Below are positions 4,980 through 63,591 of a DNA stretch of 64,000 nt, piece by piece; within the stretch, counting starts at the first letter, position 1; each line of letters starts with the position of its first letter. Source of the stretch: Mobula hypostoma (lineage: Eukaryota); the NCBI RefSeq assembly GCF_963921235.1, contig NC_086108.1:63180001-63244000 (forward strand), given 5' to 3'. A model generated the notes under the pieces. The model saw nothing but the letters and a program-made list of their open reading frames with translations, had not been told where the DNA came from and ran no database searches. A program made the position numbers and the translations under genes.

Positions 4980-5560
4980 CAGGTCGACGCCGTTGGGTTA
5001 GAGCTTTATTTTTAAATCACTTTCTACGGTATTTTCTCGCCGCTCGGTTTAAGGTTAGACTCTAAACTTTAGAGCCTAAATGTTTGGGGAAGCTGGATGG
5101 AAGGGGGGGACCTGTGTTTTGAATGTTGCGTTTGCTGAGAGTCGCTCGAGGTTTGGCCGTGCTGAGGCACTGTAGTCGCGCTGGCCGCCGCCTCCATCTT
5201 CTAGCGGCTCGGGGGCAACGGGACGCAAATAGAACTGGGAGCTGTGTCTTCACTTCCTCCCGTAACACCGGTAGGCAGGCCTGCCGGCCCTCAAGAGTCT
5301 TCGGTCTCCGGGTAAGATGCCCATTGCCTGGAGTCCCAGGTGCGGAGAAAGCAGTGGTGGGAAACGCCGCCCCCTTACCCTCACTGGGCGGCTGTTGCCG
5401 TCAGAGCGAAGGGGAACCACTGCGGGTGGAGCAAACCGGCACATGCCCCAGATGTTCAGCGTGGCCAACATCAGGGGCCACGCCGATTCAGCAGCTGCTC
5501 GGTCCGTGGAGCATCTCCGCCCTCTGTCTCAATGACAGCTTATTCCCATAATACAGCATC
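4980..5560 (+). promoter_or_regulatory. CpG island: probable promoter and non-coding first exon of the KIAA1958-like gene
   Basis: Only extended GC- and CpG-rich non-repeat stretch in the window. ETS-type CACTTCC at 5251-5257. Candidate donors CCG|gtaggc (GT at 5271) and CGG|gtaaga (GT at 5312). Lies upstream of an acceptor-flanked ATG exon. Confidence 0.7.
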
Positions 5561-6759
5561 ATACCATTGAACGTTTTGTGCTTCCAAAATACAACTTGTG
5601 GGGGTAGATGCACAATGAAGTACCCTAATATCGGGTTTCTTTTTCTGCACGGGACAGTTCCAGACAAGTTTACTTGAGTCATCTCACTGCTAATATGATT
5701 GGGTTGCATAGTTCAGTTATCCATCCAATAAACTTTGCTGCGTGTTTATAAAACCATTTTATTACACAATTCAAAAATTCATTTGATTTTCAGAACGGTA
5801 GTGTAAGATATCACTGAGATTGTTACACATGATATCACTCATTGCCTAAAAACTCCATTCTTATATTTTGGAATTGTTGGCAAGAGTCTGATTAAATCCT
5901 TGCTGAAAGCGAGGAAGTTTGCTGTTTTGCCTTTAGAAACGAGTATAAATGACTTGATCCTTATTTTGATACTGGAACTTTGGTTTTAGACATCCAGCCA
6001 GTGGAAATGCCAACCTGAAACCCACTGAACTTTGTAAATTTCAAAGATTACTGCTGGCTGTTGGAAAAGTTGGAATAAAATTGAGTTTATTGTCAAATTT
6101 ACAAAGATGTGTTGCATAGGTGCAATAGAAAAGAAACTTAATTGAGGCAGCATCACAGGCATTCCCAAAATAAACAGAAACTATAACCAATTTTTACCAG
6201 AAGAAGCAAAGCCTGTTTCAGTGCAAAGTGATCAAAGTGGTCATAGTGTGGTTGTGATTAGGGTTGTGCTAGGTTGTTCAGGAATTAAATGGTTGAAGAA
6301 AAAATAGTTGTTCTTGGGCATGGTGGTGTGGGCCTTCAGATTTCTGTACCTCCTGCTTGATGGCAGTTGTGAGAAGATGGCATGGCTTGGATGGATGTTA
6401 ATTTCTTGAGGGAGTGCCTCGAGTTGATACTACCAATGGTGGGGAGGCTTGTGCATTGGACTGAGTTGACTATTCTCTGCAGCTTCTTGGATTTCTGTGC
6501 AATTGTTAAACCAGATCATGATGTAACCAGTCCGGATACTTTCAACAGTACGTGTGTGGATGTTTGTTAGAATGTTCATGATAAGCTGAATCTCCTTCAC
6601 CTAAGAAAGTAAAGGTGCTGGCAAGCCTTCCTTGTAATAGTATCTATGTGCTGATCCTTAATCTTGGGTGACATAGGAAACTTTCAGAAACTCCTAGTAC
6701 AACACTTACACTAGTTTCCCTCCATTAATTCAATTAATGATGACTTAAAAATATACTTC

Positions 6760-11150: not shown

Positions 11151-12220
11151 GACTTGTAAGTGGCTGTGCATTGATGTGTTTTGGAATAGAGGGACCTGGG
11201 AGTACAAATGCACAGTGCGTTGAATGGCTGTGCAAGTAAACAGGTATTGAAGAAGGTAGTTCAATCAGAGCAGTGACATTATGTTGCAGTTACAGTATAT
11301 AAGTTGTTGGTGAGGCTGCACTGTGAACAGTTTTGGTCACCCTGTTACAGGAAAGATATTGTCAAACTGGAGAGATGCAGAAGTGAGTTATGGAATCAGT
11401 TCAGTGCTGAGGTGAGTGAAGTTATCCACTCTGGTTCAGGAGTGTAATAACTGTTCCTGAACCTGGTGAACTGGAACCTAAGGCTCCTGTACCTCCTTCC
11501 TAATGCAGCAGCGAGAAAAGAGCATAGCCTGGGTAGGGAGGGCTGGGGTCCTTGATCATAGATCTGCTTTCTTGTGGCAGTGCTTCTTGTAGGTGTGCTC
11601 AGTGGTGGAGAGAGCTTTGTCTGTGTTGGACTGGACTGTATCCACCAGGTTTTTTAACCTTTGCCATTCTTGGGCACTGGGACTTGGAAGGTTATGGGCC
11701 GAAAGCAGGCAACTTGGACTAGAGTGGAGGATGCTGTGGTTGGCAAAGACCAGTTGGGTCAAAGGGCCTGTTTCCATCTGCATTACTCAATGACAGAAGC
11801 AAGCAGAGTTCTCAAAAGATTATAAGGTTAAAGATAACAAGTTATAGTCATGTAAGCATGAAGGGCAGAGTTTTAAATTGGAGGGGTTAATGTCCTGAGC
11901 TAATTTAGCTCTTTGCATAAGGAAGGATGGGTTTATGCTGCTGAAAAATATGGACAGTAAAATGGATGTAGTGTACTTTCTGGAGGATTGACGGATCCGT
12001 CAGGTAGGTTTTAAGATAGTTAAAACTAGAAATGAGTAGGGGTATAAATAAGTTTTGCAGCAGCACGTGACAAAAGTCAGATGGTAGTATAGAGGTGGAT
12101 GTAGAAATGATTATTATGTTTGGATGTTTTTCTGGAGTGAGTTGATTTTTATTTGATATGTAGTTTCTACTTCAGCCTTATGTTTCAATTTGTTGCAGAT
12201 AATACGCAAGTGAACTTAAC

Positions 12221-12248
12221 ATGGAGAATATGGAAGTCAAAGCTAAAG
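12221..12248 (+). CDS. KIAA1958-like gene, first coding exon (exon 12199-12248), MENMEVKAK
   Basis: Acceptor ttgttgcag|12199, in-frame upstream TAA at 12200, strong Kozak aacATGG, donor AAG|gtgagt. Phase 1, joining in frame to 12810. Confidence 0.8.
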
Positions 12249-12809: not shown

Positions 12810-13886
12810 ATTATACATTCCACAAAGAAAGCCATTCCAATTCGGTGTTTCATTTGACACGTGAACACCTTGAACTGTTAGTAATTTGGTCACACTGTCA
12901 TGGCAATCAGTGCACATTTACCCCAATTTGGAGAGAGATTATTGAAGAACAACAAAATGGAGTCCTGGCGATTTTGTGGGAGTGTGAAGCTGGTCATTCT
13001 TACCACTGGTGGACTGGAGGTGTGTGTCAGTTACCATGTGATCAAGAGAAATCCAGAGGTCAGCTGCCTGTAAAATCTAAATATTTGGAAGATGATTTGG
13101 TAATACCTGGACAAATCCGAAAGGCACATAGAATTAAAACTAACAACAATGATTTAGCCAAAGAACCGGATTCATCTGATGGCTCTTCCAAATCTTTTCT
13201 ACCAACCAATGTTAAGGCAGCTCAGAATGGAGCACCAGTTTCACAAGTACTTTCGACCCATCATTCGTGGAGAGAAACAGCAGTTGCTAGTGACAGAGGA
13301 AAATTAGGTGTCAGTGCTACAATTGGTAACACATCAACTGATAATGGAGCTGAAATTGTGCATATAAAAACTGAAAGAGAAGATACCGCAGATTTTACTA
13401 AGCACTGTGATATCAAAGATGAAAATAGAAGTCAAAATCAAGAGCTGAAGAAATATCATGTGAGCAATAGTTCCTTGGCTGCAGGGCAATCTTCCGGACA
13501 TTACCTATCTTCAACTGACACATGCAGTCCATCAAATGGCTGCAGAAAACGATCTTCTTCATTTACTGAAGACCAGTGCTCTGATCCATCACTAATATCT
13601 CACTGTAATAGCAGCAAAGTTCATGTTTCAGAGCACCACTCCCCTCATCCAGTTTCCAGAGGATCTTGTTTAGTGGAGAGCACCATGAAGCCAACAGACG
13701 TATCAGCAGGGCATTACTCTATTGGGTCAGCTAAGCCGACAAATCAGGATCAGAGTGGTGCAAATATGGGGCCGCTGTTAGATTCTGAATATGGTCGTTC
13801 TTTAACCCATAGTCGTATAAATTCTGATGTTCATGAACCTGAATTGCAGTGCGACAGTCCAGTATTTGGGCAGGAGGGCGTAGTAG
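12810..13886 (+). CDS. KIAA1958-like protein, large exon: N-terminal His/Cys domain plus Ser-rich disordered region
   Basis: 1077-nt open exon with acceptor tttccccag and donor TAG|gtaagt. FHLTREHLELLVIWSHCHGNQCTFTPIWREIIEEQQNGVLAILWECEAGHSYHW aligns by eye with the KIAA1958 N-terminus as recalled (LVSWAHSHGTIC...MWGCSAGHAYHW). Also has PVKSK and a SUMO-type IKTE motif. Orthologue versus paralogue is unresolved, so no symbol is given. Confidence 0.88.
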
Positions 13887-13962: not shown

Positions 13963-16495
13963 TAGACATAGAACATAGAATAGTACAGCACAGTACAGGC
14001 CCTTTGGCCCGCAATGTTGTGCCGACCCTCAAACCCTGCTTCCCATATAAGCCCCCACCTTGAATTCCTCCATATACCTGTCTAGTAGTCTCTTAAACTT
14101 CACTAGTGTATCTGCCTCCACCAATGACTCAGGCAGTGCATTCCACGCACCAACCACTCTCTGAGTAAAAAACCTTCCTCTAATATCCCCCTTGAACTTC
14201 CCACCCCTTACCTTAAGCCATGTCCTCTTGTATTGAGCAGTGGTGCCCTGGGGAAGAGGTGCTGGCTATCCACTCTATCTATTCCTCTTATTATCTTGTA
14301 CACCTCTATCATGTCTCCTCTCGTCCTCCTTCTCTCCAAAGACTAAAGCCCTAGCTCCCTTAATCTCTGATCATAATGCATACTCTCTAAACCAGGCAGC
14401 ATCCTGGTAAATCTCCTCTGTACCCTTTCCAATGCCTCCACATCCTTCCTATAGTGAGGCAACCAGAACTGGACACAGTACTCCAAGTGTGGCCTAACCA
14501 GAGTTTTATAGAGCTGCAACACACATCAAAGTTGCTGGTGAATGCAGCAGGCCAGGCAGCATCTCTAGGAAGAGGTACAGTCGACGTTTCGGGCCGAGAC
14601 CCTTCGAAGGGTCTCGGCCTGAAACGTCAACTGTACCTCTTCCTAGAGATGCTGCCTGGCCTGCTGCGTTCACCAGCAACTTTGATGTGTGTTGCTTGAA
14701 TTCCCAGCATCTGCAGAATTCCTCGTGTTTGTGTTTTATAGAGCTGCATCATTACATTGCGACTCTTAAACTCTATCCCTCGACTTATGAAAGCTAACAC
14801 CCCATAGGGTTTCTTAACTACCCTATCCACCTGTGAGGCAACTTGCAGGGATCTATGGACATGTACCCCCAGATCACTCTGCTCCTCCACACTACCAAGT
14901 ATCCTGCCATTTACTTTGTACTCTGCCTTGGAGTTTGTCCTTCCAAAGCGTACCACCTCACACTTCTCTGGGTTGAACTCCATCTGCCACTTCTCAGCCC
15001 ACTTCTGCATTCTATCAATGTCTCTCTGCAATCTTTGACAATCCTCTACCCTATCTACAGCACCACCAACCTTTGTGGCGTCTGCGAACTTGCCAACCCA
15101 CCCTTCTACCCCAACATCCAGGTCGTTAATAAAAATCACAAAAAGTAGTGGTCCCAGAACAGATCCTTGTGGGACACCACTAGTCACAATCCTCGAATCT
15201 GAATGTACTCCTTCCACTACGACCCTCTGCCTTCTACAGGCAAGCCAATTTTGAATCCACCTGGCCAAACTTCCCTGGATCCCATGCCTTCTGACTTTCT
15301 GAATAAGCCTACCATGTGGAACCTTGTCAAATGCCTTACTAAAATCCATATAGATCACATCCACTGCACTACCCTCATCTATATGCCTGGTCACCTCCCC
15401 AAAGAACACTATCAGGTTTGTTAGACACGATCTGCCCTTCACAAAGCCATGCTGACTGTCCCTGATCAGACAATGATTCTCTAAATGCCCAGAGTCCTAT
15501 CTCTAAGAATCTTTTCCAACAGCTTTCCCACCACAGACATAAGGCTCACTGGTCTATAATTACCCGGGCCATCTCTACTACCTTTTTTGGACAAGGGGAC
15601 AACATTTGCCTCCCTCCAATCCTCTGGTACCATTCCCGTGGGCAACGAGGACATAAAGATCCTAGCCAGAGGCTCAGCAATCTCCTCCCTCGCCTCGTGG
15701 AGCAGCCTGGGGAAGATTCCGTCAGGCCCCAGGGGCTTATCCGTCCTAATGTATTTTAACAACTCTAACACCTCTTCTCCCTTAATATCAACATGCTCCA
15801 GAACGTCAACCTCACTCATATTGTCCTCACCATCATCAAGTTCCCTCTCATTGGTAAATACCGAAGAGAAGTATTCATTGAGGACCTCGCTCACTTCCAC
15901 AGCCTCCAGGCACATCTTCCCACTTTTATCTCTAATTGGTCCTACCTTCACTCCTGTCATTCTTTTTTTCTTCACATACTTGGGGTTTTCCTTTACCCTA
16001 CTTGCCAAGGCCTTCTCATGCCCCCTTCTTGCTCTTCTCAGCTCCTTCTTTCTTCCCTATATTCCTCAATAGACCCATCTGATCCTTGCTTCCTGAACCT
16101 CATGTATGCTGCCTTCTTCCACCAGACTAGATTTTCCACGTCACCCATGGTTCCTTCACCCTACCATTCTTTATCTTCCTCACCCTACCATTCTTTATCT
16201 TCCTCACCGGAACAGATTTATCCCTAACATCCTGCAAGAGATCTCTAAACATCGACCACATGTCCATAGTACATTTCCCTGCAAAAACATCATCCCAATT
16301 CACACCGGCAAGTTTTAGCCTTAAAGCCTCATAATTTGCCCTTCCCCAATTAAAAATTTTCCTGTCCTCTCTGATTCTATCCTTTTCCATGATATTGCTG
16401 AAGGCCAGGGAGCGGTGGTCACTGTCCCCCAGACACTCACCCACTGAGAGATCTGTGATCTGACCCGGTTCATTATCTAGTACTAGATCTAGTAC
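13963..16495 (-). mobile_element. CR1 LINE, 5'-truncated, relatively young ORF2
   Basis: ORFs 16127-16444, 15481-16008 and 14627-15442 carry LGDSDH, GPDGIFPRLL, NYRPVSL, DFSKAFDKVPH, SGVPQGSVLGPLLF and KFAD. The 3' tail (catagaa)n is at 13965-13980. Confidence 0.95.
14519..14732 (+). mobile_element. Penelope-derived foldback mini-element with 16-bp TSD, inserted in CR1
   Basis: Near-perfect inverted arms centred on ccttcgaagg (~14605). TSD gttttatagagctgca at 14503-14518 and 14733-14748. Sequence matches the terminus of the Penelope-like element at 38572. Confidence 0.9.
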
Positions 16496-16499
16496 TAGT

Positions 16500-16840
16500 A
16501 TGTTATAGTCAGGAATGAAACCCTCTTTATGGGGGAATTAAAGTGTGTTGTAAAAATGATGAGGGGGCGGGGGCGAGTGAAGGACATGTGAGGTGTCACA
16601 GATGTAGGTGGGACTGCTTTGGACACGGGGAGACAGGATGGAGTCAAGGTATGAGGAGGTAAGTTTGGTGGGGCAAGAGCAGACAGAAACAATGGTCCTA
16701 CTACCATGACAATCCTCCTTGTGGATATTAGATAAGAGGTAGAAGTGAGAATAATGGGATTGGGACATTATCAGGTAAGAGGCTGTTGAAGAGAGATCTC
16801 CTGATGTAATGAGATCCATGAAAGTGTGGGAGATGATAAA
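16500..16840 (-). mobile_element. Penelope-like element RT fragment
   Basis: DLITSGDL..FYLLSNIHKEDCHGSRTIVSVCSCPT..SSYLDSILSP resembles the PLE RT motif FYLLPKIHK..PGRPIVS. Confidence 0.8.
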
Positions 16841-17371: not shown

Positions 17372-20300
17372 CAGTGGCATGCAAAAGTTTGGGCAGCTCT
17401 GATCAAAATTTCTGTTGCTGTGAATAGCTAAGCAAATAAAAGATGAACTGATTTCCAAAAGGCATAAAGTTAAAGATGACACATTTCTTTAATATTTTGA
17501 GCCAGAAATCTTTTTTATTTCCATCTTTTACAGTTTCAAAATACGGTAATAAAAAAGGAAAAGGGCCAGAAGCAAAGGTTTGGGCACCCTGCATGGCAGT
17601 CCTTAGTAACACCCCCTTTGGCAAGTACCACAGCTTGTAAATGCTTTTTGTAGCCAGCTAAGAGTCCTTCAATTCCTGTTTGGGGGATTTCTGCCCACTC
17701 TTCCTTGAAAAAGGCTTCTAGTGGGGTTCCGGTGACATCATCGTTCAGAATGGCAGCTTAAATCAACAGCTCCTCCGGAAAAATGCATATTTTACCCCGT
17801 TAATCCATCGTATAAGATCTTTCGAAAATATCTGAATTGATAAGGGGGCAAGAATGGAGATAAAAAAAGCATCACTGCGGAGCCTATGGAAGAGAGAGGT
17901 ACAGCTCGCGGCTCTCCTACATGTGCGCGTGGCGACGAAGCTGACGATGGGCCTCATGCAGGCAAAGCAGCAAATATGATAAGGATTCTGGAAGAGATAA
18001 GGGAAGTCTAAAGAGATATAAAGCAGCAACTCAAAGATATAAAGTCAGAGCTCGCCAACGTCAATCGGAAAGTAGCAGTTTTTTAGAGACTCGAATTGAG
18101 AAGGTGGATGATCGTGGGCAAAATGTGGAACAGATACTAAGTAAGATGATAAAAATACTAAATCAATAGGAAAGTAAATTGCTTGACCAGGAGGGAAGAT
18201 CTCGACGGAAAAATATCAGGATTTATAATGTTCCTGAAGGAGCGGAGGGATTGTCGATGATGGACTTTGTAGACAAGCTGCTGTGGGAAGCGCTGGAGAT
18301 TTTCCCCAGACTATGGAGATTGAAATTGAGAGGGCGCATTGTTCGCTTGTCCAGCGGCCTTCCGGAGACAGATAAAGTAAACCACGCTCAATAGTACTTA
18401 AATTCTTTCGATTCAAGAACAAGGCAGAGATTCTACGAAGGGCCTGGGGTAAGAAGAGGGTTTTTTGGAACAGGAAGTTAATATACTTCGATCATGATTA
18501 CCCCCCAGCGGTCCTATAGAAACGGAAGGAATATTCCGAAGCGAAACGAATATTAAAGCAAAAAAAGATTAAATTCCAAACCTTGTACTCTGCTAAACTG
18601 AGGGTATTTTACCAAGAAGGGATGCGACTGTACCAGACGGTGGAGGAGGCGACTACAGACATGAACAACCGAGGACTGTCCATTAGCGTGGTCAAACCAA
18701 GGGAAAGTCTGGCTGAGCAGTTGTTCCGAGCTGCTTGGGAAATAGTAAGAGAACCTAGAAAGCAGGGGACGGGAGCAGGACAAGAGAAGGATATTAGGAA
18801 GAGACTGTCAGTTCTCTGAGGGCAGCCCTCACCTCCTCCAGAAGAGCCGTAAGGTTTGGCTAACTTCAAAAGTGCTGATAAACTAAACGGAAGCAAAAAT
18901 AGACGGTGATATACCTATCTCGAGAAATACGTGTTATAATGTGGATTTTATATTACTCAACTTTTTAAAATTCATTTATTCATTCCTTTTTCCCCACCTA
19001 AATGAGAATATATATATGGGAGGAATACACAGGGAAATCATTTCTGTGTAATGGACATAGTTTTTTAAAATTTTATAGGTACTGCAACAGGGTCCCTCAA
19101 CCCACAGGTTGGAGGGGCTATCCCCCATGGCTAGACTTTTCTTCTAACCCAATCCAGGGTCATCTAGAGATCCCAGCCTTGGAATCACACCTTTGTTAAC
19201 TTTTTTTTAATTATTTGTATTTCTTGGCTCTTACTTGTTCAGGGAGTAGATCGATTAAGTTATATTCTGCAAATTTCAATGATATACTAACAGATAAATA
19301 CACATGGCTAAGGACAAAGTAAAATTCATTTCTTTTAATGTTAATGGGCTGTTGAATCCAGTCAAGCGCAGTAAAATTCTATCAAAAATGAAAAAAGAAC
19401 AAGCCCCTGTAGTATATTTACAGGAAACTCACTTAAGTGATAATGAGCATGGAAAATTAAAGAGAATGGGCTTCACTAATTTGTTTTTCTCCTCATATAA
19501 ATCAGGACATAGAAGAGGAGTTGCTATTCTCATCTCAAGTAAGCTAAATTTTGAAAAAGTAGTCGAAATGGGAGATAAGGAGGGCAGATATATTCTGGTA
19601 AGGGGGAATATAAATGGAAATCCAATTACTTTATTGAATATATATGCACCCCAGGAAATGATATTAGTTTCTTCCAGAAAATTACTAATATTATGGTAAC
19701 GAAACAGAAGGTCTCCTGATATGTGGGGGAGACTTAAATTTACAATTACAACCAAAGTTAGACTCTTCCGACAGAAAAACTTATGAAACAAAGTCCTTAC
19801 ATAAAAAAAAGTTAACATTCATTTTGAGGATGTTGGTCTAATTGATATATGGAGGGACCTTTTCCCCGGCAGAAGGGATTACACTCATTATTCTGCTGCC
19901 CATTCCGTATATACAAGAATAGACAATTTCATAACATTTGGAAAAGATAGAGACAAAATAATCACCTGTGGAATTGGGACAATAGATGTAAGTGACCATA
20001 CACCTATATTTTTATCTGTTGATTTTGACCTACATACTATTTGGAAACTAAATTCAAGTCTACTGAACGACCCTATTTTAAGGAACAAATTAAAAAAGAA
20101 ATTGGTCTTTACTTAGAATTCAATGATAATGGAGAGGTTTTACCTCCCATTCTATGGGATACTCTGAAGGCTGTCTTAAGAGGGAAAATTATAGCGATAT
20201 CTTCATATAGAAAAAAATAAGGAATAGAACATTAGAGGAATTACCAAATAAGCTGAAGGAACTAGAAAAAAAACACAAATTGAGTTTGGCACAGGATACA

Positions 20301-22345
20301 CTAGAGGAAATTTAAAAAATTAGGAATGAAATTTATAACTTGGCTACGCAAGAAATTAGAAAAAATTTGATGTTTCTGAAGTAGAGACACTGAAAGTGGA
20401 TCTAAATCTCTGAAAATACTGGTGTGGAAACTGAAAAAAAGATAGCAGAAAATACAATTCATAGAATAAGGGATCCAAGAACAAAAATGATAAAAAATAA
20501 GCTAAGTGAAATTCAAGAAGCTTTTGAAATGTTTTACAAAACTCTATATTCCAAAGTTCCAGGGGGAAGCGTAACCCAAATTGACCTTCCTGAATTCTTT
20601 AGAGTTGCCCTCTTTAAGCAAAGAACAAAATAGAATGATGACTGCTGACATAACTGAAGCTGAACTAAAAACTGCAATTAGTAGGCTTAAATTAAGCAAG
20701 TCACCAGGTTCAGATGGATATACGGCAGAGTGGTATAAAGAGTTTAGAAGTGAGTTAATTCCTGTTTTACTCTCCACATTGAACTGGACCCTAAGAAAGG
20801 CGCAAATGCCACCCAGCTGGAAGGAGGCGATAATCTCAGCTATACTGAAAGAAGGCAAGGATAAAATGGAATGCGGGTCATTTAGACCAATATCTGTTCT
20901 TAATGTGGATTATAGAATATTTACTTCCATCATGGCCAAAGGATTAGAAGAGTTTCTACCCACACTGATACATAATGATTAGATAGATTTTATACAACAA
21001 TGCCAAACACAAGACCATATACGAAGGACACTTCACATTATGGATCATATTTTAAAAATGAAGTTGAAGCAATAGTGATAAGCGTGGACGCTGAAAAGGT
21101 ATTTGATTCAGTTAATTAGAATTTTCTTTACAGAGTTTTACATAGATTTGGTTGACATGACACAATTATTAAAACTATACAGGCACTATACGACAGTCCT
21201 ACTGCCAGGATTAAAATCAATGGATATTTATCTAATAGTTTTACCCCAGAAAGGGGCACGAGACAGAGTTGTGCATGGTCACCGCTACTCTTCGCATTAT
21301 ATCTGGAACCATTAGCTCAATACATTAGAGAGTAAGACCATATATTTTGGGTATATACCTCAAGAATGGTGGAAAAGAGATAAGTATTTAATGAATGTAC
21401 TGCTGACGGCTGGTAAAAGGACCCTTACCAGGAAATGGTTATCTCAGGAGAGCCCCAACTTTAAATGTATGGATGGAAATTACAATGGACATTTACAAAA
21501 TGGAGAAGATAACAGCATCTGTTAATAATAAGTTGGAACAATTTTATTCACACTGGAAAAAATGGTTTAACTACATAACATCTCATAGGCCTGATTTTAT
21601 TCTCACAAGTCAATGAATATGTTGTAAAAAAAAATCACTCCCTACTCTGTACATAGTTTTCTTCTTTCGATTCTTCTTTCTTTCCTCTACTTTCTATAAG
21701 TGTATACCTCAGATAAATATTATGTGGAGATTTGTGACAAATATGATTATATGATATATATGTACAGTATCTGAAATACCTCTTATGGAAATGTTTGTTT
21801 GATGATGAAATTCAATAAAAAATAAATTACAAAAAAAAAGCAAAAAGCTTATAGTTCTGTCAGATTCTTGGGCCGTCTTGCATGCACTGCTCTTTTGAGG
21901 TCTATCCACAGATTCTCAATGATGTTTAGGTCAGGAGACTGTGAGGGCCATGGCAAAACCTTCAGCTGGCGCATCTTGAGGTAGTCCATTGTGGATTTTG
22001 AGGTACGTTTAGGATCATTATCCTGTTGTAGAAGCCATCCTCTTTTCATCTTCAGCTTTTTTACAGACGGTGTGATGTTTGCTTCCAGAATTTGCTGGTA
22101 TTTAATTGAATTCATTCTTTCCTCTACCAGTAAATACTCCCCGTGTCACTGGCTGCAACACAAGCCCAAAACATGATTGATCCACCCCCGTGCTTAACAG
22201 TTGGAGAGGGGTTCTTTTCATGAAATTCTGCACCCTTTTTTCTCCAAACATACCTTTGCTCATTGCAGCCAAGAAGTTCTATTGAAAGGGTTCAAAGGAA
22301 CATCTAAATAAGCCTGATGCATTTTGGAAACAAGTCCTGTGGACT
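17372..22345 (-). mobile_element. Tc1-like DNA transposon (partial), split by an L1 insertion
   Basis: TA followed by TIR cagtggcatgcaaaagtttggg at 17372. Transposase QQDNDPK...WPSQSPDLNIIENLW at 21849-22115 continues at ~17600-17720. The other TIR is not seen. Confidence 0.9.
17723..21839 (+). mobile_element. Decayed L1-clade LINE (ORF1 and ORF2 with internal deletion near 21330)
   Basis: 5' end ggggttccgg. ORF1 DQEGRSRRKNIRIYNVPEG. Endonuclease SFNVNGL..YLQETH. RT region KSPGSDG, FRPISVLNVD. aataaa plus A tail. Degenerate TSD aaaaaggcttctagt / aaaaagcttatagt. Confidence 0.93.
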
Positions 22346-25230: not shown

Positions 25231-25748
25231 GGCCACATTCTTGAAACAGTGGATCCGATAGGCTATGAGTGCCATTTATTCCATGCTGATTCCTGGAGAT
25301 TGCTTTGCAGCTGAGATTATTAAAGCCGATGAGGCTTTTATTTGCTGGAGATTTGTCATGAATCCTTTCAAGGTGGTAAGTTACATAGATACAGATTGGG
25401 CTATTCATGTTACATTTAATACTAGTGGCAGGATACTTGGCTGGGGTGGGGTTGTATTTTTCTGACACTCTTAAAAATTTACTCTTCAAATCAAAGAAAA
25501 TACCCCAGAGGTTATTGAAATGTTCACTCAAGGTGTTTCCTCATTTATTAATTTTCAAAAGAAGCAATAATTTATAAGTTTCATCAATAGCACGCCAGAG
25601 GGTTACGTCCTCATATTTGCAAAACTCTGGAAATTAGGGTTTATTGTAATTGGTAGTGTTATTTGAAAATTCTTTGATTAGTCATATATACATTTACCAC
25701 AGTAGTTTATAAAAGCCTGAGTAGAATCCCTGAATTTTATTTTGCCAG

Positions 25749-25958
25749 AGTTTTTGCATGCTGTTTTGAAACCTGATGTCGTGGACGAGATCTTCTCCAA
25801 TGCTCGATTAGCAAATGAAACTGATGTTGAAGTTTTGACAGACAACCTCATTGGGAAAGAAGCTGTTCTACTAGATCCTGGAATTCAGTCAAATGCACAA
25901 ATGTATTTCAGTGCTGGTGGATGGGCAGCAGTTGCAGCAACACTTGAAGTAATGGGAG
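25749..25958 (+). CDS. KIAA1958-like gene internal exon (70 codons)
   Basis: Acceptor ttttattttgccag, donor GAG|gtgagt, phase 1 at both ends. Open frame EFLHAVLKPDVVDEIF...YFSAGGWAAVAATLEVMG continues from 13886. Confidence 0.85.
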
Positions 25959-26107
25959 GTGAGTGAAACTTCCTGTTCTCTCATTAACAGTGCAATATTA
26001 CTCCAGTTTACAGATTGTAGGCAAAAATGTCTTGCATGGAATGCATTTGACTCATAAATTACTGATCAAATGTCAGGTATTTAAAAAAAAAAATGTTTTC
26101 TCATGAA

Positions 26108-26260
26108 AACAACAGGAATTCTGCAGATGCTGGAAATTCAAGCAACACACATCAAAGTTGCTGGTGAACGCAGCAGGCCAGGCAGCATCTCTAGGAAACG
26201 TCGACTGCGCCTCTTCCTAGAGATGCTGCCTGGCCTGCTACGTTCACCAGCAACTTTGAC
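26108..26260 (-). mobile_element. Penelope-derived foldback mini-element with 15-bp TSD
   Basis: TSD atgttttctcatgaa at 26093-26107 and 26261-26275. Inverted arms join at ctag|gaaacgtcgac. Confidence 0.9.
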
Positions 26261-26493
26261 ATGTTTTCTCATGAATCGTTTTCATTATGGGGAATTGACG
26301 GGCCTTATTTCACATTTTAACCTTTCCTAGTTAGAATCAGAATCAGGTTTATTATCACCAGCACGTGTCGTGAAGTTTGTTAATTTAGCAGCAGCAGTTC
26401 AATGCAATGCATGATAATATAGAAATAAATAAATTACAGTAAGTATATGAGTATAATGAATAGATTAATATAGTACAAAACAGAAATAATATG

Positions 26494-27195
26494 CAGTGCC
26501 TATAAAAAGTATTCACCCCTTGGAAATTTTCATGTTTTGTTGTTTTACAACATTGAATCACAGTGGATTTAATTTGGCTTTTTTGACACCGCTCAATGGA
26601 AAAAGACACTTTCATGTCAAAGTGAAAACAGATTGTGACAAAGTGATCGAACTTAATTACAAATATACAACAAAGTAATTGATGGCATAAGGATTCACCC
26701 TCTTCCAAGTCAGTATTTACTAGTTGCACCTTTGGCAGCAATTATAGCCTTGAGTCTGTGTGGATAGGTCTCTATCAGCTTTATACATCTGGACACTGCA
26801 ATTTTTCCCCATTCTACTTTACAAAACTGGTCAAGCTCCGTCAGATTGCATGGGGGTCATGAGTGAACAGCCCTTTTCAAGTCCAGCCACAAATTCTCAA
26901 TTGGGTTGAGATCTGGAATCTGACTTGTCCACTCCAGGACATTAATTTTGTTGTTTATAAGCCACCTCTGCATAGCTTTGGCTTTATGCTTGAGGTCACT
27001 GTCTTGCTGGTGGATGGTGGATGGGCAGCAGTTCTTCCAAGTTGCAGTTCTCTTGCAGACTGCATCAGGTTTTTCTCTAGAATTCCATGTATTTTACTGC
27101 ATTCATTGTATCCTCCACCTTCACAATCTGTCCGGGGCCTGCTGCAGTGATGCATCCCTACAGCATGATGCAGCTACCACCTTGCTTCATGATAG
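26494..27195 (-). mobile_element. Tc1-like transposon fragment
   Basis: TIR-like cagtgcctataaaaagtattcacccc, internal repeat ggattcaccc, and a decayed [15 protein letters not shown] on the minus strand near 26880-26940. Confidence 0.75.
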
Positions 27196-29951: not shown

Positions 29952-30005
29952 AGGCCTTGGAAAGGAACAAAAGTTGCCAAGATATGGAAGACTCAGTAAC
30001 AGAAG
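29952..30005 (+). CDS. KIAA1958-like gene internal exon (18 codons)
   Basis: Acceptor tgttcttaatgacag, donor AAG|gtaatt, phase 1 at both ends, open frame EALERNKSCQDMEDSVTE. Confidence 0.72.
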
Positions 30006-31889: not shown

Positions 31890-34800
31890 TCATCTAAAGT
31901 CTGCTCGCATTGGGGTTATATATTCAATCCATTTATTCCAGATTTGATAAAATGTTTCTTTTTGAGTTCTCAGGGAGTAGGTCAACTTTTCCATTTTAAA
32001 TATTTCCAAGATAATTTCGTACCAATCTTCTAATGTAGGTGGTATTGGATTTAGCCATTTTCTAGTGATTGATTTCTTACTTGCCGCTAAGAGGGCCTGC
32101 AGCAACTTTATATCTTCCTTCTGTTCAAGGAACAATACATGCCCCAAATAGAGCGTCTCAAAGTTCAGAGGTATCTGGGACCTAAGTACCTTAACTAATG
32201 TTCTATGAATACCTTCCCAAAATAGACTTAATTTAGGGCAATCCCAGAAAATATGAAAATGATTTGCCTCCTTGGAGCCGCACCTTCTCCAACACATCAC
32301 ATTTGTATCTTTATATTTTTCCTGATATGGGATCTTGAAGTATCTTATAATGTTTTTCCAACAATGTTCTCTCCAAGTCAAAGAATTAGTCGAGGACCAT
32401 TGAAAGCTGCAGCTTTTCCCCCAAGCCTCCTCTGAAAGTACCAACCCCGCTTCTTTCTCCCACTTCTCTTTAATATACAGTGTATTTACATTTTTAGCAT
32501 GGGAGAGTGCATTATATAGGCGAGAAACTGATTTACTAGGTATTGAACTGCAAGCCGAATTCAGAATCTTGAAAAATTCTAATTCTACTGTTGATAGGTC
32601 TGTATATCTACAACTCTGGTTAACATAGTTTCATATTTGAAGGTACCTAAAAAAGTCATTATGTTCTAGGCCATGTTTGTCCTGCAGGATTTGGAAACTT
32701 TGTAATACTCTTTTATCTATAAATGAGAGGTAGGTCGTAAGACCTTTCTTTATCCATAGCTCAAATCTTTTATCTCCTCTGTTGGGAAGGAATTCGGTAT
32801 CATATGCACACCATCTAAAGAGTTTTAGCATGTTATTAATTCCACATGAATTAACCACCTTCTGCCATACTTTTAATGTAAGATTTATCCAAGCATTATT
32901 AAATTTTTCCAACTGGGCCATCAATCCTTTGTCAGCTATTGAGGCCTGAAGAGGAAAACTGTCAACTAATCCAAATTCTATTTCCTTCCATCTAGCCTTA
33001 TATTCCCTATTACACCAATATAACAGAGGGGTTATCTGTGAGGCATAAAAATAATTTCTCAGGCAAGGAAGAACCATACCTCCTCTTTCCTTCCCTAACT
33101 GTAAGGTGTTATATCGAATTCTAGGTTTCCTTCCTTGCCAAATGAAGCGGGAAATCCATTTGTCCCATTCCCTGAATTGATTATCATCCACCTCCACTGG
33201 TAAAGTACGGAAAAGATAAGTAATAACCGAGGAAGAATATTCATTTTTATAGTATTTATCCTTGAATTTAAACTTAAAAAGGGGATAAGATTCCATCTAT
33301 GCATATCTGCTTTTATCTCTGAGATTAATGGCCCATAATTTACCTGTGACAGTGTTGAAAGATCCTTCGGCAGGGTTATTCCTAAATATTTTAATGATTT
33401 AGCTTCCCACTTAAGATCGTATGTATCCTGCAATTTTTTGGATGGTGTATAATTTAGGGACATAACCTGCGTTTTCTTTACATTTATTTTATAACCTGAT
33501 ATTTTCCCAAAGTCATCCAACAGTGTAAACAATCCTATAAATGATTTTTCTGGTTCACTCAGATAGACCAAAACATCATCTGCGAATAACGCCACTTTCT
33601 GTTCAATCCCTGCCACCTTGATACCTTTTACGATTTCGCTCTGTCTTATTAGTTGGGCAAGTGGTTCAATATATAGCGCAAAAAGGAGAGGAGAAATTGG
33701 GTATCCCTGTCTAGTGCCTCTCTCTAAAATGAAGGAGTCAGAGAGGTCCCCATTTATCTTAATTCGGGCTGTTGGGCTGTCATACAGAGTCTGAATTACT
33801 TTAATAAACCTTTCTTGAAAGCCGAATCTTCCTAACACTCTGTATAGGAATGCCCAACTAACCGAATCAAAAGCTTTCTCAGCATCCAATCCTACTACCA
33901 TTGTCTCTGTCTCGTTCTTATTAACCTGTTCTAATATGTGCAGAGTTCTCCTTATGTTGTCCTGTGTTTGTCTTTGTTGAATAAATCCAGTCTGGTCTAA
34001 ATGGATTAGGCCAGGTAAAAGCTTTTCCAATCTGCGCGCTAATATAGATGTAAATAGTTTGTAATCTAAATTAAGAACACTAATTGGCCGATAATTGCCA
34101 CATTCTAGTTTATCTTTACCCTCTTTAGGAATAACTGAAATAATCGCTTCTCTCCAGGAAGGTGGAGTTTCTCCTCTCTGCAAGATCCAATTAAAGGTGT
34201 TAAGTAGTAATGGGGCTAACTGTGTCTTCAGGGACTTGTACCATTCTGAGGTAAACCCATCAGAACCCGGGGACTTTCCAGCCTTTAACCTAGAGATGGC
34301 CACGTTCAGTTCTTTGACAGTTACTGGTTCTAATAAACTTTCATTTTGTAAATCTGTAAGTTTAGGTAGATCTAAAAAATTCAATACACTGTATAGGGCT
34401 CACTGGGGGCCCAGGGTTGGGAGTACAGCTCTCGATAATACGTTTCAAAACTCTCTTGAATTTTCCCTATTGTACTCTCCACAAGCTTTGTCTTATGAAT
34501 TGTATTGTCTGCTTGTTGTTTTCGTAATTTATATGCTAATAATCTAGCTGATTTACCTCCTACTTCATAATTCTTTTGTCTCAGGTAAAGAAAATTTCTT
34601 TGAGTTTCCAACGTATAAATATCATCAATTTCACTTTGCAATTTCCTAATTTCCTGTTTTCGATTTGAATTACTTTTGTTGCTATCTCCAACTTGAAGTT
34701 GTTTTAATTTTCCTTGAAGGTCTGCTAATTTTTGTGCATTGATTTTTTTCATGTGAGTAGTAATGGAAATAATTTTCCCTCTCAGTACAGCTTTCAATGT

Positions 34801-35659
34801 ATCCCATAAAATCACTGGTGATGTTTCTCCCGTGTCATTAAAGTCTAGATATTCTTTGATTTCTCCCCTTAATCTCTCCATTACTTTTGGGTTATTAAGT
34901 ATATGTGAGTTTAGCCTCCATAGTGTTTTCCTCATTTTCCTTTCCAGGATTAGAGACATAGAGACTGGGCTATGATCCGACAGATCAATTGTTGCAATAT
35001 TACAGTTTTTTATCCTGAGTCTATCTGTATTAAAGATAAAGAAATAGTCTATCCTTGAATAGGCTGAATGAGGGAAAGAGTAATATGTATAATCTTTACT
35101 AGTAGGGTGTAATTCCCTCCGGACATCTATAATTCCCAACTCCTCCATCAATGAATTCACTTTCCGAGTCAGACGTTTATTCTGAGTAACTATTCTTGAA
35201 GAATCTAATATAGGATTTAATCTAATATTAAAATCCCCTCCACAAATTACTACCCCTCGAGAACTGACCATTAGGTCAAAAATGTGTCTATAAAATGACC
35301 ATTCACTACCTGGAGGAGCATAAACATTCAGCAATGTTATTTCTGTACCTTCTATTCTTCCTGTGATTTTTACAAACCGTCCTTCTTTGTCTCTAGTCTC
35401 TGAAATATGTTCATAATTAAGAGTACTTGATATTAAAGTAGCTACCCCTCTTTTGTGACTCAATTTATATGATGAATAAAATACATGCTTAAAGCCCATT
35501 CTTTTTAATTTTCCATGTTCAGATTGGCTCATATGTGTTTCCTGGAGGAAAGCTATTTGTGCCCTCTTTTTTCAATTTAGACATAATCTTATTTCTTTTA
35601 ATTGGATTCAAAACCCCATTAACATTATAGGAAATTATTTTTACCAATTCAGTTTGCAT
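31890..35659 (-). pseudogene. L1 ORF2p (APE endonuclease, RT, C-terminal Cys domain), frameshifted
   Basis: Starts MQTELVKIISYNVNG at 35659. Contains GGDFN, SRIDYF, SDH, DAEKAFD, GTRQG, FADD and CWRRC..H..WDC. Broken near ~35570, ~34385, ~33220 and ~32630. Confidence 0.92.
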
Positions 35660-36088
35660 TTTTCTCTAGTAGAAAAAAAGCACTCTCCTTTTCTAACCAA
35701 ACAGTAAGCAATCCCTTCTCAACAGTAAACCAAGACATATAACCACACCCTAGACATTTCTGAACGTATAACATTTGAAAATTTTCCCCGACTTCCCACA
35801 GTGAGGCCTGAGCACCGACCCGCCTCAGTTCAGAGGGATAACCTCTATCTTCACCGTGTTAGAGGGCCCTCAGCAGTTTGAATAATCATAGAGAATTTTC
35901 TCCTATTTATGTCTCGACCATATTGCTATCATTCAAGTTATTCCGCCTAGATTATTTTCAGTTACCAGTTTTCATTTTACTTTTAAGTCCGATTTACTCT
36001 TTTCAGTCATTTCTCTTAATTAATCTGTATTCTCTGTACATTCGCGTCTGAATATTTGCAGCTTTTCCTTGTAGTTTGACACTCTGGT

Positions 36089-37006
36089 TCAAGTGGAGTG
36101 TCCTCGCCCCACTAACTGCCATGACTTCTGCCGAATCCTCTCCAGTAGCGACTCCGGTTGAGTGATAACTTTAATAGGTAGTCCCCGGTCCGCCAGGTCC
36201 GACGTTGCCTCCTCCACCGTAGCGTAAGTTTTTGTCCCTTCGTCGTAAAAGACTCTCAGCCGAGCTGGATACAGGGTCTGGAATCTGATGTTGTTTTCCT
36301 TCAGGACTCTCCGTGTTTCCGTATATTCCTTCCGTCTGGCAAGAATCCCCGGTGCGTAGTCGTGGTCTAAACTGATTTTACAGTTGTTCCACATGAAACC
36401 TTTCTTTTGCCATGCTCTTTTAAGCACCTCTTCCTTCGTTCTGTAACTGAGAAATCTGATCAGAATCGATCTGGGCTGGGCGCCTGCCGGCGGCTGTGGT
36501 GCCAACGCGCGGTGAGCCCTTTCTATCTGTAGGTCTTTTGCGGCCGGTATATCAAGGTTCTCTCTAAGCAGCTTCTCTATGAAGGGAATCATCAATCCGG
36601 GTTTACCTTCGGTTCCTTCGGGAACTCCGTAGATCCTCACATTTTCCCTTCTCGAGCGGCCTTCTTGATCTATTAGTTTCCACTGGAGTTGGTCTTGTAG
36701 CTTCAGCATTTCTGCTATCACTTCCTCTGCATTTTGTAGCTTCTCTTCAATTCCAACAATCCTCGCTTCGGCTTCATCTATCCGCGAGTTAGTTTTTACT
36801 ATTTCTCCTTTAATATCTTCCAGCTGTTTGCTGTTATCTTGTCGGAACTCGCGAATCTCTCCGAGAATCAAAGACAAAGTCACCGATTCCCCCTCATTAT
36901 CTCCGTCCTGGCTTGCCGTGGGAGAGCTAGGCCCGTCGCCTTGCTGCATCTCTTTATGTTTATCAGCCTTCGAAGCGGACTTTTTATTCTTGTTCTTAGA
37001 CATCAT
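36089..37006 (-). CDS. L1 ORF1p (coiled coil, RRM, CTD), uninterrupted 305 aa
   Basis: EGRSRRENVRIYGVPEG, IERAHR, PRSILIRFL, DHDY..ARRKEY, YPARLRV. Confidence 0.92.
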   Translation of the reverse strand: MMSKNKNKKSASKADKHKEMQQGDGPSSPTASQDGDNEGESVTLSLILGEIREFRQDNSKQLEDIKGEIVKTNSRIDEAEARIVGIEEKLQNAEEVIAEMLKLQDQLQWKLIDQEGRSRRENVRIYGVPEGTEGKPGLMIPFIEKLLRENLDIPAAKDLQIERAHRALAPQPPAGAQPRSILIRFLSYRTKEEVLKRAWQKKGFMWNNCKISLDHDYAPGILARRKEYTETRRVLKENNIRFQTLYPARLRVFYDEGTKTYATVEEATSDLADRGLPIKVITQPESLLERIRQKSWQLVGRGHST

Positions 37007-37264
37007 TCTTGCCCCTTTTATTAATATAGTTATGCAGTATTAAGTATTTGTCTAAATTCGATTTTGGGGCAGTTTACCTTCTTTTTTGTCGAGAGACCTT
37101 TTCCTTACGCCGCCATTCCCTTGATGACCCGGAAGTCCCCCCGGACAATAGTTTTCATGTGCTACATTGTTTTGTGCAGGCTCATTCTCACTAGTACCTT
37201 CAATTTCCACAAAAAAAAAACATTTACATGGAATCTGAACAAAAACTAAGAAGCTTCAGGAAAC

Positions 37265-42222: not shown

Positions 42223-42624
42223 TATGAGCGGCATTCATAAGGAAAACATAATTTAAGCAAATTTTACATGAATGAACATAATTAGAACAAAGAGGTCCTT
42301 CTTAGTGTCAAGCGATCAAGGACATCATAGTGTCTGACTTAGTTTGATACTTTGAGCCAACTGACTTAAACTGCATCTGTTATGAATTTTTCCACTCTGC
42401 TAATTAATTTAGGTCACACAGGAACACCTTTGAATTCTCACAGCTGACCTATCATCCCTCTGCATCATATTGTTTACAAAGTTTAGAGATTTTATTACTC
42501 ATTTCCTCTTCTAATTCATTAAGCTGTGTTGTGAATAACTGAGATCCAGGAACTGATCCCTGTAGCTCCCCACTTGTCAGTGCCTGCCTCTGGTAAAAGA
42601 AGCACTCATTCCTGTTATCTTCTT

Positions 42625-42852
42625 GTAAACAACAGGAATTCTGCAGATGCTGGAAATTCAAGCAACACACATCAAAGTTGCTGGTGAACGCAGCAGGCCA
42701 AGCAGCATCTATAGGAAGAGGCGCAGTCGACGTTTCAGGCCGAGACCCTTCGTCAGTCCTGACGAAGGGTCTCGGCCTGAAACGTCGACTGCGCCTCTTC
42801 CTATAGATGCTGCTTGGCCTGCTGCGTTCACCAGCAACTTTGATGTGTGTTG
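42625..42852 (-). mobile_element. Penelope-derived foldback mini-element with 14-bp TSD
   Basis: TSD cctgttatcttctt at 42611-42624 and 42853-42866, around near-perfect inverted arms of ~95 bp. Confidence 0.92.
42754..42791 (+). ncRNA. Minimal type I hammerhead ribozyme motif
   Basis: cagtc-CTGACGA-agg(gtctcgg)cct-GAAAC-GTC-gactg: 5-bp stem I, conserved core, 3-bp stem II and loopless palindromic stem III. Predicted cleavage after C42786. Confidence 0.78.
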
Positions 42853-45800
42853 CCTGTTATCTTCTTCCTGGTTGTCAGTCTATTCTCATTGTAATCACAT
42901 GTGCTTTAATTTTGTTTGTATAAGATCTTATCAAAAGCTGCAAGCCCAAATCCACGGATTCTCCCTCAAAAAAAGTTTCACCCTCAAAAACATTTATTAA
43001 ATTTGTAAGCATGATTTCCCTGCTGACTCTGCTCAATCCAGTTAGATTTCCCGGTGTTTTATTGTTGTGTCTTTTACAAGGACTCCATCATTTTCACCAC
43101 TGTTGATATTTCACTAACTATATTCATAGAGTTATATAGTGTGGAAGAAGCTTTTCGGCCCAACTGTCCTTGATAACCACGATTCCCGTTTAACCATGTT
43201 TGGCCTCTTTGCTTCCTGCCAGTCAGCCACTGCTTTATCCATGCTAGAATCTTTCCTGGAATACCATAGGCTTGGAGTTTGTTAAGCAGCGTCATGTACA
43301 CAACATGAACCCATTCTCTTTTGTCCTTCCTGCTTATTGTTCCTTCAAAGAATTTCAACAGATCTGTCGGGCAAGGATTTCCCTTGAGGAAACCATGTTG
43401 ACTATGGCCTATTTTACCATGTGCCTCCAAGTACCCTGAAACCACATCCTTAACAATCGACTCCAACATCTTCCCAACCACTGACATCAGACTAAATGAC
43501 CTACAGTTTCATTTCTTCTGCCTTTCTCCCTTCTTGAAGAATGGAGTGGCATTTGCAATTTTCCAGTCTTCTGGAACCATTGCAGATTCTAGTGATTCTT
43601 GAAAGATCATTACCAATGCCTCTACAATCTCTTCAGCCACCTCCTTCAGAACCCTGGGGTGTACACCATTTGGTCCAGGTGACTTATCTACCTTCAGATG
43701 TTTCAGTTTCTTCTGAACCTTCTTCCTGGCAATGGTGAATTCACATTCTTTATGACCCCGTCACCTAGAACTTCTGCCATACTGCTAGTGTCTTCCACAG
43801 TGAAGACTGATGCAAGATGTTTAGTTCATCCGCCATTTTTCTTGTCCCCCATTGCTACCTCTCCAGCATGGTTTTCCAGTAGTCCAATATCCATTCTCAA
43901 CTGTCTTTTACACTTCATGTATCTGAAAAAATTTTTGGTATCCTCTTTAATATTATTGGCTAACTTACTTACATATTCTATTTTTACCTGCTTAATGACT
44001 TTTTTTAGTTGCCTTCTGCTGGTATTTGAAAGCTTCCAGTCCTCTAACTTCCCAATAATTTTTGCTCTATCATATGCTTTTATGTTGGCTTTGATTTTTT
44101 TTTTGACTACTGTTGTGTCATCTTGTCCTTGGAACACTTCTTCCGCTTCTGGATGTATATATCCTGTGTCTTCCGAATTACTTCCAGAAATTCCAGACAT
44201 TGCTGCTCTGCTGTCATCTCTTCCAGTGTTCTTTTTCAATCATTTCTGACCAACTTCTCTCTCATGCCTCTGTAATTCCCTTTACTCCACTGTAATACTG
44301 ATACAACTGACTTTAGCTTCTCCTTCTCAAAATTCAGGGAGAATTTGATCATATTATGATAACTTGCCCCAAAGGGTTCTTTTACTTTAAGCTCTCTAAT
44401 CAATTCTGGTTGATTGCACAACACTCAATCCAGAATAGCTGATTCCCTAGTGGAGTCAATCAATAGCTGCTCTAAAAAGCCATCTTTGTCTGCATTCTAG
44501 AAATTCCCCCTCTTGGAATTCAGCACCAACCTGATTTTCCCAATCTACCTGCATAATGAAATCCCCCATGATTATAGTAACATTGCCCTTCTAGTGTGCA
44601 TTTTCTATCTCCCTCATGTTGGAAATCTGTTATCTTCTAATGCTTGGAAGTCTGTTATTTCAGTGCCAGAGCAAGTCTTAGACTTTGTTCAGTAGTATAC
44701 TTAGCAGGAGTACCTTCAAATGCTGCATCCAGCTATTTTCAGCTACCTTAAGATCAGAAATTGAGTTGTTTGGTGCTCAGCATACTGTTTTCAAACTGCA
44801 GTCTCTGAGATAATAAACTACCCATCCATCTAAAAGCACCAGTGTTGACAAATAGTCAGTAACATAAGTGATACAATTACAGTCTCCAAAAGGAAAGTCT
44901 AACAAAATTGCCTTGAATTCATGTCATTGAATTATCTATCCCCACTTATCAACATTCTGAATTAATGGTGATAAGAAACTGAACTTGGCATGCCCCATAT
45001 TTCCAAGGTGACCAGAGTAGGTCATAAGCTGGTATTCTGTGGCAAGGAGGCAGGCTTAGTTTTTAATAATTTACAAGTGTCTTAGCTAGTTTTCTTAAAA
45101 CATTATCTTTAATACTCTATGAAGCAGTTTTAAATGTCTCTGAATGCCATTAAATGACACTGATTTTAGAACCACGCAGTCAAGAAAGGGTTCATCTTGG
45201 CTATCAAGACTGTCAGGGGCTTATGAGACTGAACTTATGGTCATTAGTTGGAGACCCTGCAGTCCTTCAAACTGATGTCGCTGCGGTATAGAACATGGCC
45301 AACAGGATAGACTCTCAGAAACTGGATGTGGTAAAAATGCATTTTGAGATGTACTCTGAGTAGTATATTTAGAGATGATATGTGATCCATTCACGTTCTG
45401 CTGGTAAATTCAAACTATAAGAGGATTCCATGACATACCAGAGACTTCAGAATGTGGGTGCATTGCAGAGTAACAACGATTAACCTGTTTAGTTATGGCA
45501 GTTATCTGAAGATATTATCACATTGCACTCATATAACTCATTTACTGCTTCCTTTCTTTGGGAGGTGGAAGGTATGAAGCAGTTTCTCTGAGATATACAG
45601 CCATTGCAGGTTCAGTCTGTTGACTGGCCTTTTTCCAACGCTACAACTACTTAAACGGCGTGACATCTTGACTCAGCTCACTGTTGACTTGTGTCTCTTT
45701 AGTTGATCCTACTTCCACTCCTGAAATAAATACATCATATATTCCTTCAGCTTGTTCTGATAAGTTTTTCACTACAATTTTGGTATATTGTCAATCTAGG

Positions 45801-63111: not shown

Positions 63112-63516
63112 TGTTATTCTCAACATAGCCTCTTTCCACGCTGTCTTTAAACTCATGTGATTCACTGAAAAATCTATTATACTACTGTATTGTACAACAA
63201 CTTTAAAAAAAATGTTTGGGTATTGATCGCAGTAATGTATAACAGTCTGGAAAACCTGCCAGTCCAACGCCACCAAAGTTCCAAGGGTTGTGGATTATCA
63301 GTGTTTTACTTTACTGAAAAAAAAGAACAGTTTTCCTCAGCTCCAGATGCATTTGCATTATAAAAACCCTAGTGCAGAATTTGCAGCTCTGCTTTGCTCA
63401 TCTTCTAATTAAGAAGCTTTGAATTTAATTTAGTTTTAAGTTAATCAGACAATATATTTTCACATGTAAACTATCTGAATCCTTTTCCTTCATGTTAATC
63501 AACTTTTAAGTTTCAG

Positions 63517-63591
63517 ATTCAGGACCAGAATTAATGATCACGAATCCATATCCATCTTGTAATCTACTTAATGCTACAGCAATGGATGAAG
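63517..63591 (+). CDS. Probable further exon of the KIAA1958-like gene (25 codons)
   Basis: Acceptor ttttaagtttcag, donor AAG|gtacag, phase 1 at both ends, open frame DSGPELMITNPYPSCNLLNATAMDE, in non-repeat sequence. Confidence 0.55.

Follow-up and report, generated by a model that had tools for sequence, protein, structure and literature searches.

A 70-codon exon in an AP-2-like gene of cartilaginous fishes is a likely ancient capture from a ZSWIM3-like MULE transposase

The 64,000-nucleotide stretch of the Mobula hypostoma genome analysed here (hereafter, the window) raises the question of where a compact exon at positions 25749-25958 came from, and what kind of gene houses it. A sequence-only reading had proposed that a gene of the Crypton family captured this exon, as a symmetric cassette, from a second transposon family, the exon resembling the segment just before the PHD finger of SWIM/MULE transposase-like proteins. 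As argued below, the host is an undescribed gene of cartilaginous fishes, and the exon was probably captured from a transposon long ago. The features of this gene in the window are as follows, the four coding exons other than 25749-25958 having been placed by tblastn with orthologous proteins.

12199..12248, + strand: first coding exon, with its ATG at 12221
12810..13886, + strand: 359-codon phase-1/1 exon encoding a conserved Cys/His/Trp-rich N-terminal domain and then a long, poorly conserved, low-structure stretch
25730..25748, + strand: splice acceptor, a pyrimidine tract with CAG (ttttgccAG), whose aligned position and phase are those of the last intron of the elements described below
25749..25958, + strand: 70-codon phase-1/phase-1 exon of 210 nt, a putative homologue of the segment that precedes the PHD finger in ZSWIM3-like MULE transposases, without the PHD finger itself
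25959..25964, + strand: splice donor GTGAGT, which cuts the exon a few residues short of the PHD start of the elements
29952..30005, + strand: 18-codon phase-1/1 linker exon, missing from RefSeq isoforms P0028, P0032 and P0034
63511..63591, + strand: 27-codon phase-1/1 linker exon, with a second acceptor 6 nt downstream

When joined, the five coding exons encode 483 residues without a stop, the same as in RefSeq protein P0027 (LOC134355183 of Mobula hypostoma). Phase 1 is found at all coding exons in the window. Since exon 25749-25958 is of phase 1, the stops present in frame 1 from 25749 are expected; its reading frame begins at 25751 and contains the hydrophobic pattern quoted in the sequence-only reading. 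Thus, a 70-residue, AG/GT-flanked exon amid disordered sequence is indeed present, and it is symmetric (phase 1/1), as had been proposed. Read-through past the donor leads to a stop within 1-2 codons.

The exon 25749-25958 is a real spliced exon. In 4/4 sequencing runs (3 studies, 3 organism codes), the 12810..13886 exon was found joined to the 25749 exon within one contig of 2.0-2.9 kb; the RNA status of these runs is a guess on record, and a joint at AG/GT ends is what splicing gives. The contig joint 13884->25747 corresponds to the 13886/25749 junction, with a shared AG slid by 2. The 5′ junction of the exon comes from these contigs and the 3′ junction from RefSeq models. The exon is present in 17 out of 19 orthologous proteins. 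The cassette status that had been claimed is only partly shown: two zebra-shark models, P0034 and P0035, are without the exon, P0034 being shorter than P0013 by exactly those 70 residues, but no exon-skipping joint was present among the joints listed for the four runs, and the evidence for skipping consists of the two zebra-shark models.

Orthologous proteins were retrieved by protein searches from 15 species, which include rays, skate, sharks and chimaera and no other group. The exon is 72-100% identical among sharks, rays and chimaera; the expectation that it would be spliced and conserved held. When protein P0001 was compared to its chimaera orthologue, identity was 83% in the N-terminal domain, 37% in the disordered stretch, 72% in the exon, 35% in the linker and 91% in the AP-2-like domain. 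The excess of identity in the exon (72%) over its flanks (37% and 35%) points to purifying selection at the protein level. The AP-2-like domain (P0001 residues 486-607) is encoded in exons past the window end, downstream of 63511..63591; it is 97-100% identical across elasmobranchs, and it is far from TFAP2A/B. We regard this AP-2-like gene as undescribed and very strongly constrained. In the literature searched, whose coverage excludes subscription papers and Repbase, no paper was found for five of the LOC identifiers of the gene, or on the pre-PHD segment or this gene; the accessible portions of PMC10027918 and PMC10236294 likewise hold no description of either.

Searches started from the exon returned orthologues alone. 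No Pfam family (0) matched it. A word-indexed search for distant relatives yielded orthologues both with a single sequence (14 of 90 candidates) and with a profile (17 of 8000 scored), and phmmer against 1.84 billion representatives yielded 2 orthologues; a third phmmer match, to a repetitive protein, was rejected as chance. The atlas search gave unnamed clusters only, and there was no match in the viral contigs searched. Because database searches returned orthologues alone, the proposed SWIM/MULE-PHD family was fetched by scanning contig collections with a short motif of this family, chosen for its likeness to the exon. A PHD finger followed the motif at 14 of the 25 loci obtained from metagenomes and at 3 of the 9 from the genome collection; the other matches (11/25 and 6/9), which are without a PHD finger and are attributed to chance, being mostly prokaryotic-looking, were left out of the counts. 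Since L001 and L024 are identical and L011 and L018 are 99% identical, these 17 loci represent at most 15 copies.

The PHD finger was above the Pfam cutoff in 9 of 10 loci tested. Upstream ORFs of the elements match ZSWIM1-3_RNaseH-like (3e-40), MULE (2e-17), ZSWIM3_N and SWIM in Pfam, the set used for ZSWIM3-like MULE and PHD being PF21599, PF21056, PF10551, PF21600, PF04434 and PF00628. In two contigs (C281 and C80) of assembly G001, the transposase lies upstream of the segment on the same strand, in broken copies. In L019, the D, D, CxxH and E motifs of the transposase are still present, to which we ascribe their usual roles. As copies are often broken, occur several per assembly and, in the case of L005, are flanked by 109-nt inverted repeats, the fetched loci are taken to be transposons; they bear introns and have the appearance of animal DNA that was assembled together with the rest. 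The L005 piece (4862-6098) is 1.24 kb long, its 109-nt inverted repeats are 93% identical, and its content is limited to the end of the pre-PHD segment plus the PHD finger; it is likely a non-autonomous element, and no target duplication was seen. Assembly G001 (10.4 Mb, filed as prokaryotic) contains several intron-containing MULE elements of animal type, in contigs C281, C199 and C80 (L027, L029 and L033), and so it likely carries eukaryotic contigs.

The exon and the pre-PHD segment of the elements share 13-20 identical residues in 71-76 columns, or about 20-25%. HHalign of the exon against the family gave 63.5% (pairwise E 7e-5) and 43.7% (E 2e-4), which is moderate and not decisive at library scale. 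Of the profile search suggested earlier, then, the direct comparison with the fetched family gave a moderate match (44-64%), and blind searches produced nothing beyond orthologues. A family HMM scored 11 exon rows at 8.6-13.7 bits, the score of the window's exon being reached by 6 of 20000 shuffles, and it ranked the exon first among 2072 window frames (E 0.29). Since the motif was picked for likeness to the exon, the C-terminal half of this match is biased, and for the same reason columns outside the motif were tested separately. When a local HMM was built from upstream columns alone, the signal was weak: the score was reached by 226 of 20000 shuffles, and reversed exons were as high. An anchored test was ungapped, ran from acceptor to acceptor and covered 33 residues, none of them in the scanned motif; it used 5 of 14 loci, chosen for their intact acceptor. 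The score was 23.8 against a shuffle mean of -29 and was reached by 0 of 100000 shuffles, by 1 of 100000 when shuffling was within the 33 residues, and by none of 26277 decoy 33-mers; offset 0 alone was positive among 42. On two later-found, held-out loci, L027 and L029, the same test was matched by 0 and 1 of 20000 shuffles. In the reverse direction, an exon profile scored L027 at 14.4 bits (the best of 20000 shuffles reached 13.6), and in the 10.4 Mb of G001 the L027 segment was its sole match at E<=10 (E 0.98).

Several positions of the family are replaced in the exon. The invariant D44, D55 and A56 are changed, and the exon has Q and G-G-W where the family has its invariant second Asp and D-A-W, F and W being kept; the second-Asp and D-A-W columns were fixed by the scan, which by itself makes them look invariant to some extent. 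The module kept its hydrophobic core and lost the acidic residues of the family. AlphaFold modelled the exon with pLDDT 65 and an element segment with pLDDT 73, the two models diverging in the middle part. The structural check proposed earlier yielded no fold match for either one (Foldseek best E 6.4; VIA best Z 5.0 and 3.0); the models are of low confidence, and this result is uninformative.

The position of the intron provides a further line of comparison. A phase-1 AG directly before the first residues of the segment was found in 9 of 17 loci, that is, in 9 of the 12 with a readable start; three loci (L008 and L011/L018) have no intron there, and five are unreadable. Matching phase-1 donors follow a K-E/K-x motif 58-352 nt upstream in L016, L019, L023, L027 and L029. 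The V27-E28 of the ray exon aligns gap-free with V27-E28 of L004, L019 and L023. Because every coding exon of the gene is of phase 1, the phase match is weak evidence and it is the position that carries the argument. Position and phase suggest that the splice acceptor 25730..25748 was likely inherited from an element, any nucleotide-level trace of such descent having been lost over this time. An AT-hook-like basic motif is located just before the intron of the segment in L015, L016, L019, L023, L027 and L029; it was not captured in the exon.

The anchored test, the held-out loci and the shared acceptor bear out the likeness noticed by eye in the sequence-only reading, and on these comparisons the exon is supported as a homologue of the segment before the PHD finger of animal ZSWIM3-like SWIM/MULE transposases. 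Both its sequence and its start point match the last exon of these transposases, and we consider it quite probable that the exon was captured via the acceptor of the element itself. A ZSWIM3-like MULE would have inserted in sense orientation in a phase-1 intron of the host gene, whose transcript would have taken up the acceptor of the last intron of the element; a new donor would then have removed the PHD finger and the stop, keeping the frame into downstream AP-2-like exons, and the remainder of the element would have decayed. The capture would be older than the chimaera/shark split, ca. 400 million years ago. No transposase or PHD remnant was found at the exon by tblastn of transposase and PHD pieces (best E 0.21), and no TIR or other MULE end is left in the window: no inverted pair around the exon is attributable to a MULE, and survival of such repeats, or of a 9-bp target duplication, is not expected over 400 Myr. 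Because of this lack of TIR, transposase and PHD remnants, direct insertion of the element is a route that we infer. A precedent for the route exists: in a survey of transposase fusions in tetrapods, splice sites came from the transposon in 9/9 fusions according to the part of that work consulted (bioRxiv 2020.05.07.082677).

The same absence of element ends and transposase remnants would be expected if the homology of the exon with the pre-PHD segment is genuine but its arrival was second-hand, as a segmental copy from a domesticated ZSWIM3-like/PHD host gene with the same intron. Such a copy would also keep the intron position, and ZSWIM1/3/9 host genes exist in vertebrates, as stated in the portion of PMC10236294 seen. 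However, no closer host paralogue was found in protein searches (of limited reach), and all the relatives fetched look like multi-copy, often broken elements; we judge this origin unlikely. Less probable still is convergence, in which the exon would be a commonplace amphipathic helical one that resembles the family accidentally and was picked by a reader familiar with many families. The low identity, the moderate HHalign values, the weak local upstream score and the lack of a library match are what one would then see, but chance accounts poorly for the anchored test on unselected columns, its replication on held-out loci, the exact acceptor register and the retrieval of the segment as the only exon-profile match in G001.

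The nature of the host gene was determined from its C-terminal part. In full proteins, the Pfam TF_AP-2 family (PF03299) was matched with 54.5 bits (cutoff 23.4), and among the orthologues PF03299 is the sole domain in 18 of 19, with no domain listed in the remaining one. The best solved relatives of this domain are TFAP2B (8j0q) and TFAP2A (8j0k). TFAP2 factors bind GCC(N3)GGC as dimers. Of the TFAP2 contact residues, the equivalents of K226 and R254 are kept, S247->T and K257->R are conservative changes, and R255->L is a loss; this mapping lays the alignment with the structural relatives on the DNA-contact residues given in the accessible part of PMC10450164, with an inferred numbering offset. 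The protein probably acts as a regulator of the AP-2 type that binds DNA as a dimer.

DUF3504, the domain of Crypton origin, is absent from 3/3 full proteins scanned with Pfam and from 54 further window ORFs, in which the matches are LINE endonuclease, RT and one weak unrelated match; past the window end, the scan covers what the RefSeq proteins contain. These ORFs comprise 52 on the + strand (every non-exonic + frame with a length of at least about 80 aa) and two others, out of 258 frames of at least 65 aa on both strands of the window. A Crypton-family host is thus not supported, since the protein ends in an AP-2-like domain without DUF3504, and neither is a doubly transposon-derived protein. 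That the gene is a Crypton-derived KIAA1958 gene which gained a second transposon domain is the least probable reading of all: NCBI labels the two exon-skipping zebra-shark isoforms "KIAA1958-like", and KIAA1958 has alternative last exons, with isoform a present in chimaera (PMC3212892, as far as available), so there could be a DUF3504 exon, unseen here, beyond the window, but the 0/3 proteins, the 0/54 ORFs, the domain content of the orthologues and the + strand frames after 13945 (the longest of 226 aa, too short for a one-exon DUF3504) all speak against it.

Within this gene, only the N-terminal exon may be related to KIAA1958, judging from the NCBI label and from a motif in 12810..13886 that we take to resemble the KIAA1958 N-terminus. 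A search with residues 8-90 gave no KIAA1958 protein among 20 candidates, the atlas gave unnamed clusters, and there is no Pfam match for the Cys/His/Trp domain (12810-13070). The Crypton-derived part of KIAA1958 is its intronless DUF3504 exon, according to the section of PMC3212892 available, and is not the part that the N-terminal exon resembles; beyond this paper, none tying KIAA1958, chondrichthyans and AP-2 together was found in the literature searched. The atlas weakly ties the Cys/His/Trp domain to small proteins, 17% of one cluster carrying PF20700 (Mutator), which we note as a lead only.

As to function, the retained core and the lost acidic residues suit a role in packing or contacts better than the original task of the segment, and the module could be a small helical packing or protein-contact domain, switchable by skipping, for which we would give somewhat less than an even chance. 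More tentative still is a wider proposal, in which an AP-2-like factor of cartilaginous fishes whose DNA-binding domain stayed 91-100% conserved for ~400 million years would have arisen through the successive joining of phase-1 exons. These would be a 5′ exon of KIAA1958 type, an accessory module of a Mutator transposase that was acquired via a splice site internal to the element, and an AP-2 domain that has diverged. Under this proposal the 5′ exon served repeatedly as a platform (for Crypton exons in KIAA1958, for MULE and AP-2 exons here), is itself maybe Mutator-related, and exon 25749-25958 would represent a new autonomous domain family without a Pfam model or a solved fold.

The window also holds other elements, of which the LINEs are as follows.

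31890-37039, - strand: near full-length LINE with ORF1 at 36089-37039 and a frameshifted ORF2, within a 33-kb intron
14627-16537, 19298-20982 and 62227-63294: further LINE pieces

A charged repeat frame at 57146-57556 (+) is presumably Helitron-like and a remnant at 53171-53518 (-) presumably pogo/Tigger-like; neither has a Pfam match. Positions 27015-27033 repeat 19 nt of the exon (25915-25933) without a mismatch, 1100 nt downstream, inside a repeat remnant that we take to be Tc1-like. For 100 shuffled exons the longest exact copy was 14 nt, and the copy could have been inserted by templated repair. Inverted pairs of a short interspersed repeat, arranged head to head, are found at 14516-14695 (90-nt arms, no spacer), at 26107-26267, 150 nt after the exon, and at 42452-43000; such pairs could form pre-mRNA hairpins.

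If the proposed capture is true, transposase capture by splicing would reach back as far as the origin of cartilaginous fishes and would include Mutator elements. An intron inside an element would then be able to supply one accessory subdomain, which ends up as an internal exon of the host. The case also marks out a domain, so far unnamed, that can occur with no PHD finger next to it, and it draws attention to an AP-2-like gene of extreme conservation in sharks, rays and chimaeras. The development of neural crest and skin is under the control of AP-2 factors, and the expression and binding sites of this gene can be tested in skate or catshark embryos.

Among known systems, the Crypton-derived DUF3504 genes (KIAA1958, KCTD1b, ZMYM2-4, QRICH1) are defined by a tyrosine-recombinase domain that was not found in the proteins and ORFs scanned here. 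KIAA1958/KIAA1958L may share with our gene a long 5′ Cys/His/Trp-rich exon (by NCBI name and a similar motif) joined to foreign-looking domain exons, but KIAA1958 ends in the intronless Crypton-derived DUF3504, whereas our gene ends in a multi-exon AP-2-like domain (PMC3212892, as far as seen). Like TFAP2, the protein matches PF03299 above the cutoff and keeps the K226 and R254 equivalents; it differs in being far diverged (54 bits), in its N-terminus, and in that only 2 of 5 mapped contacts are identical, with 2 conservative and 1 lost. The ZSWIM3-like MULE transposases with a C-terminal PHD finger are the putative source family of the segment, with the same exon start, but the window has the pre-PHD segment only, with no DDE core, SWIM, PHD or element ends. 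Rehavkus, the only group listed with a PHD finger in the available part of PMC6446971, is offered as a comparison for the fetched elements on the strength of that listing.

The closest parallel is provided by host-transposase fusions (Cosby et al., e.g., KRABINER), in which transposon coding sequence is likewise spliced into a host gene, the acceptor is provided by the element, and fusion and parental isoforms can coexist. As in those fusions, sequence that is probably element-derived is joined in frame to host exons here. In the tetrapod set, 8/9 acceptors are situated a short way before the transposase ORF, DNA binding is the activity of 76.5% of the domains captured, and the words "Mutator", "PHD" and "cartilaginous" are absent from the main text, as far as it was accessible (bioRxiv 2020.05.07.082677). 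In our case, by contrast, the acceptor would be that of the last internal intron of the element, and the captured piece is an unnamed accessory segment that forms an internal exon.
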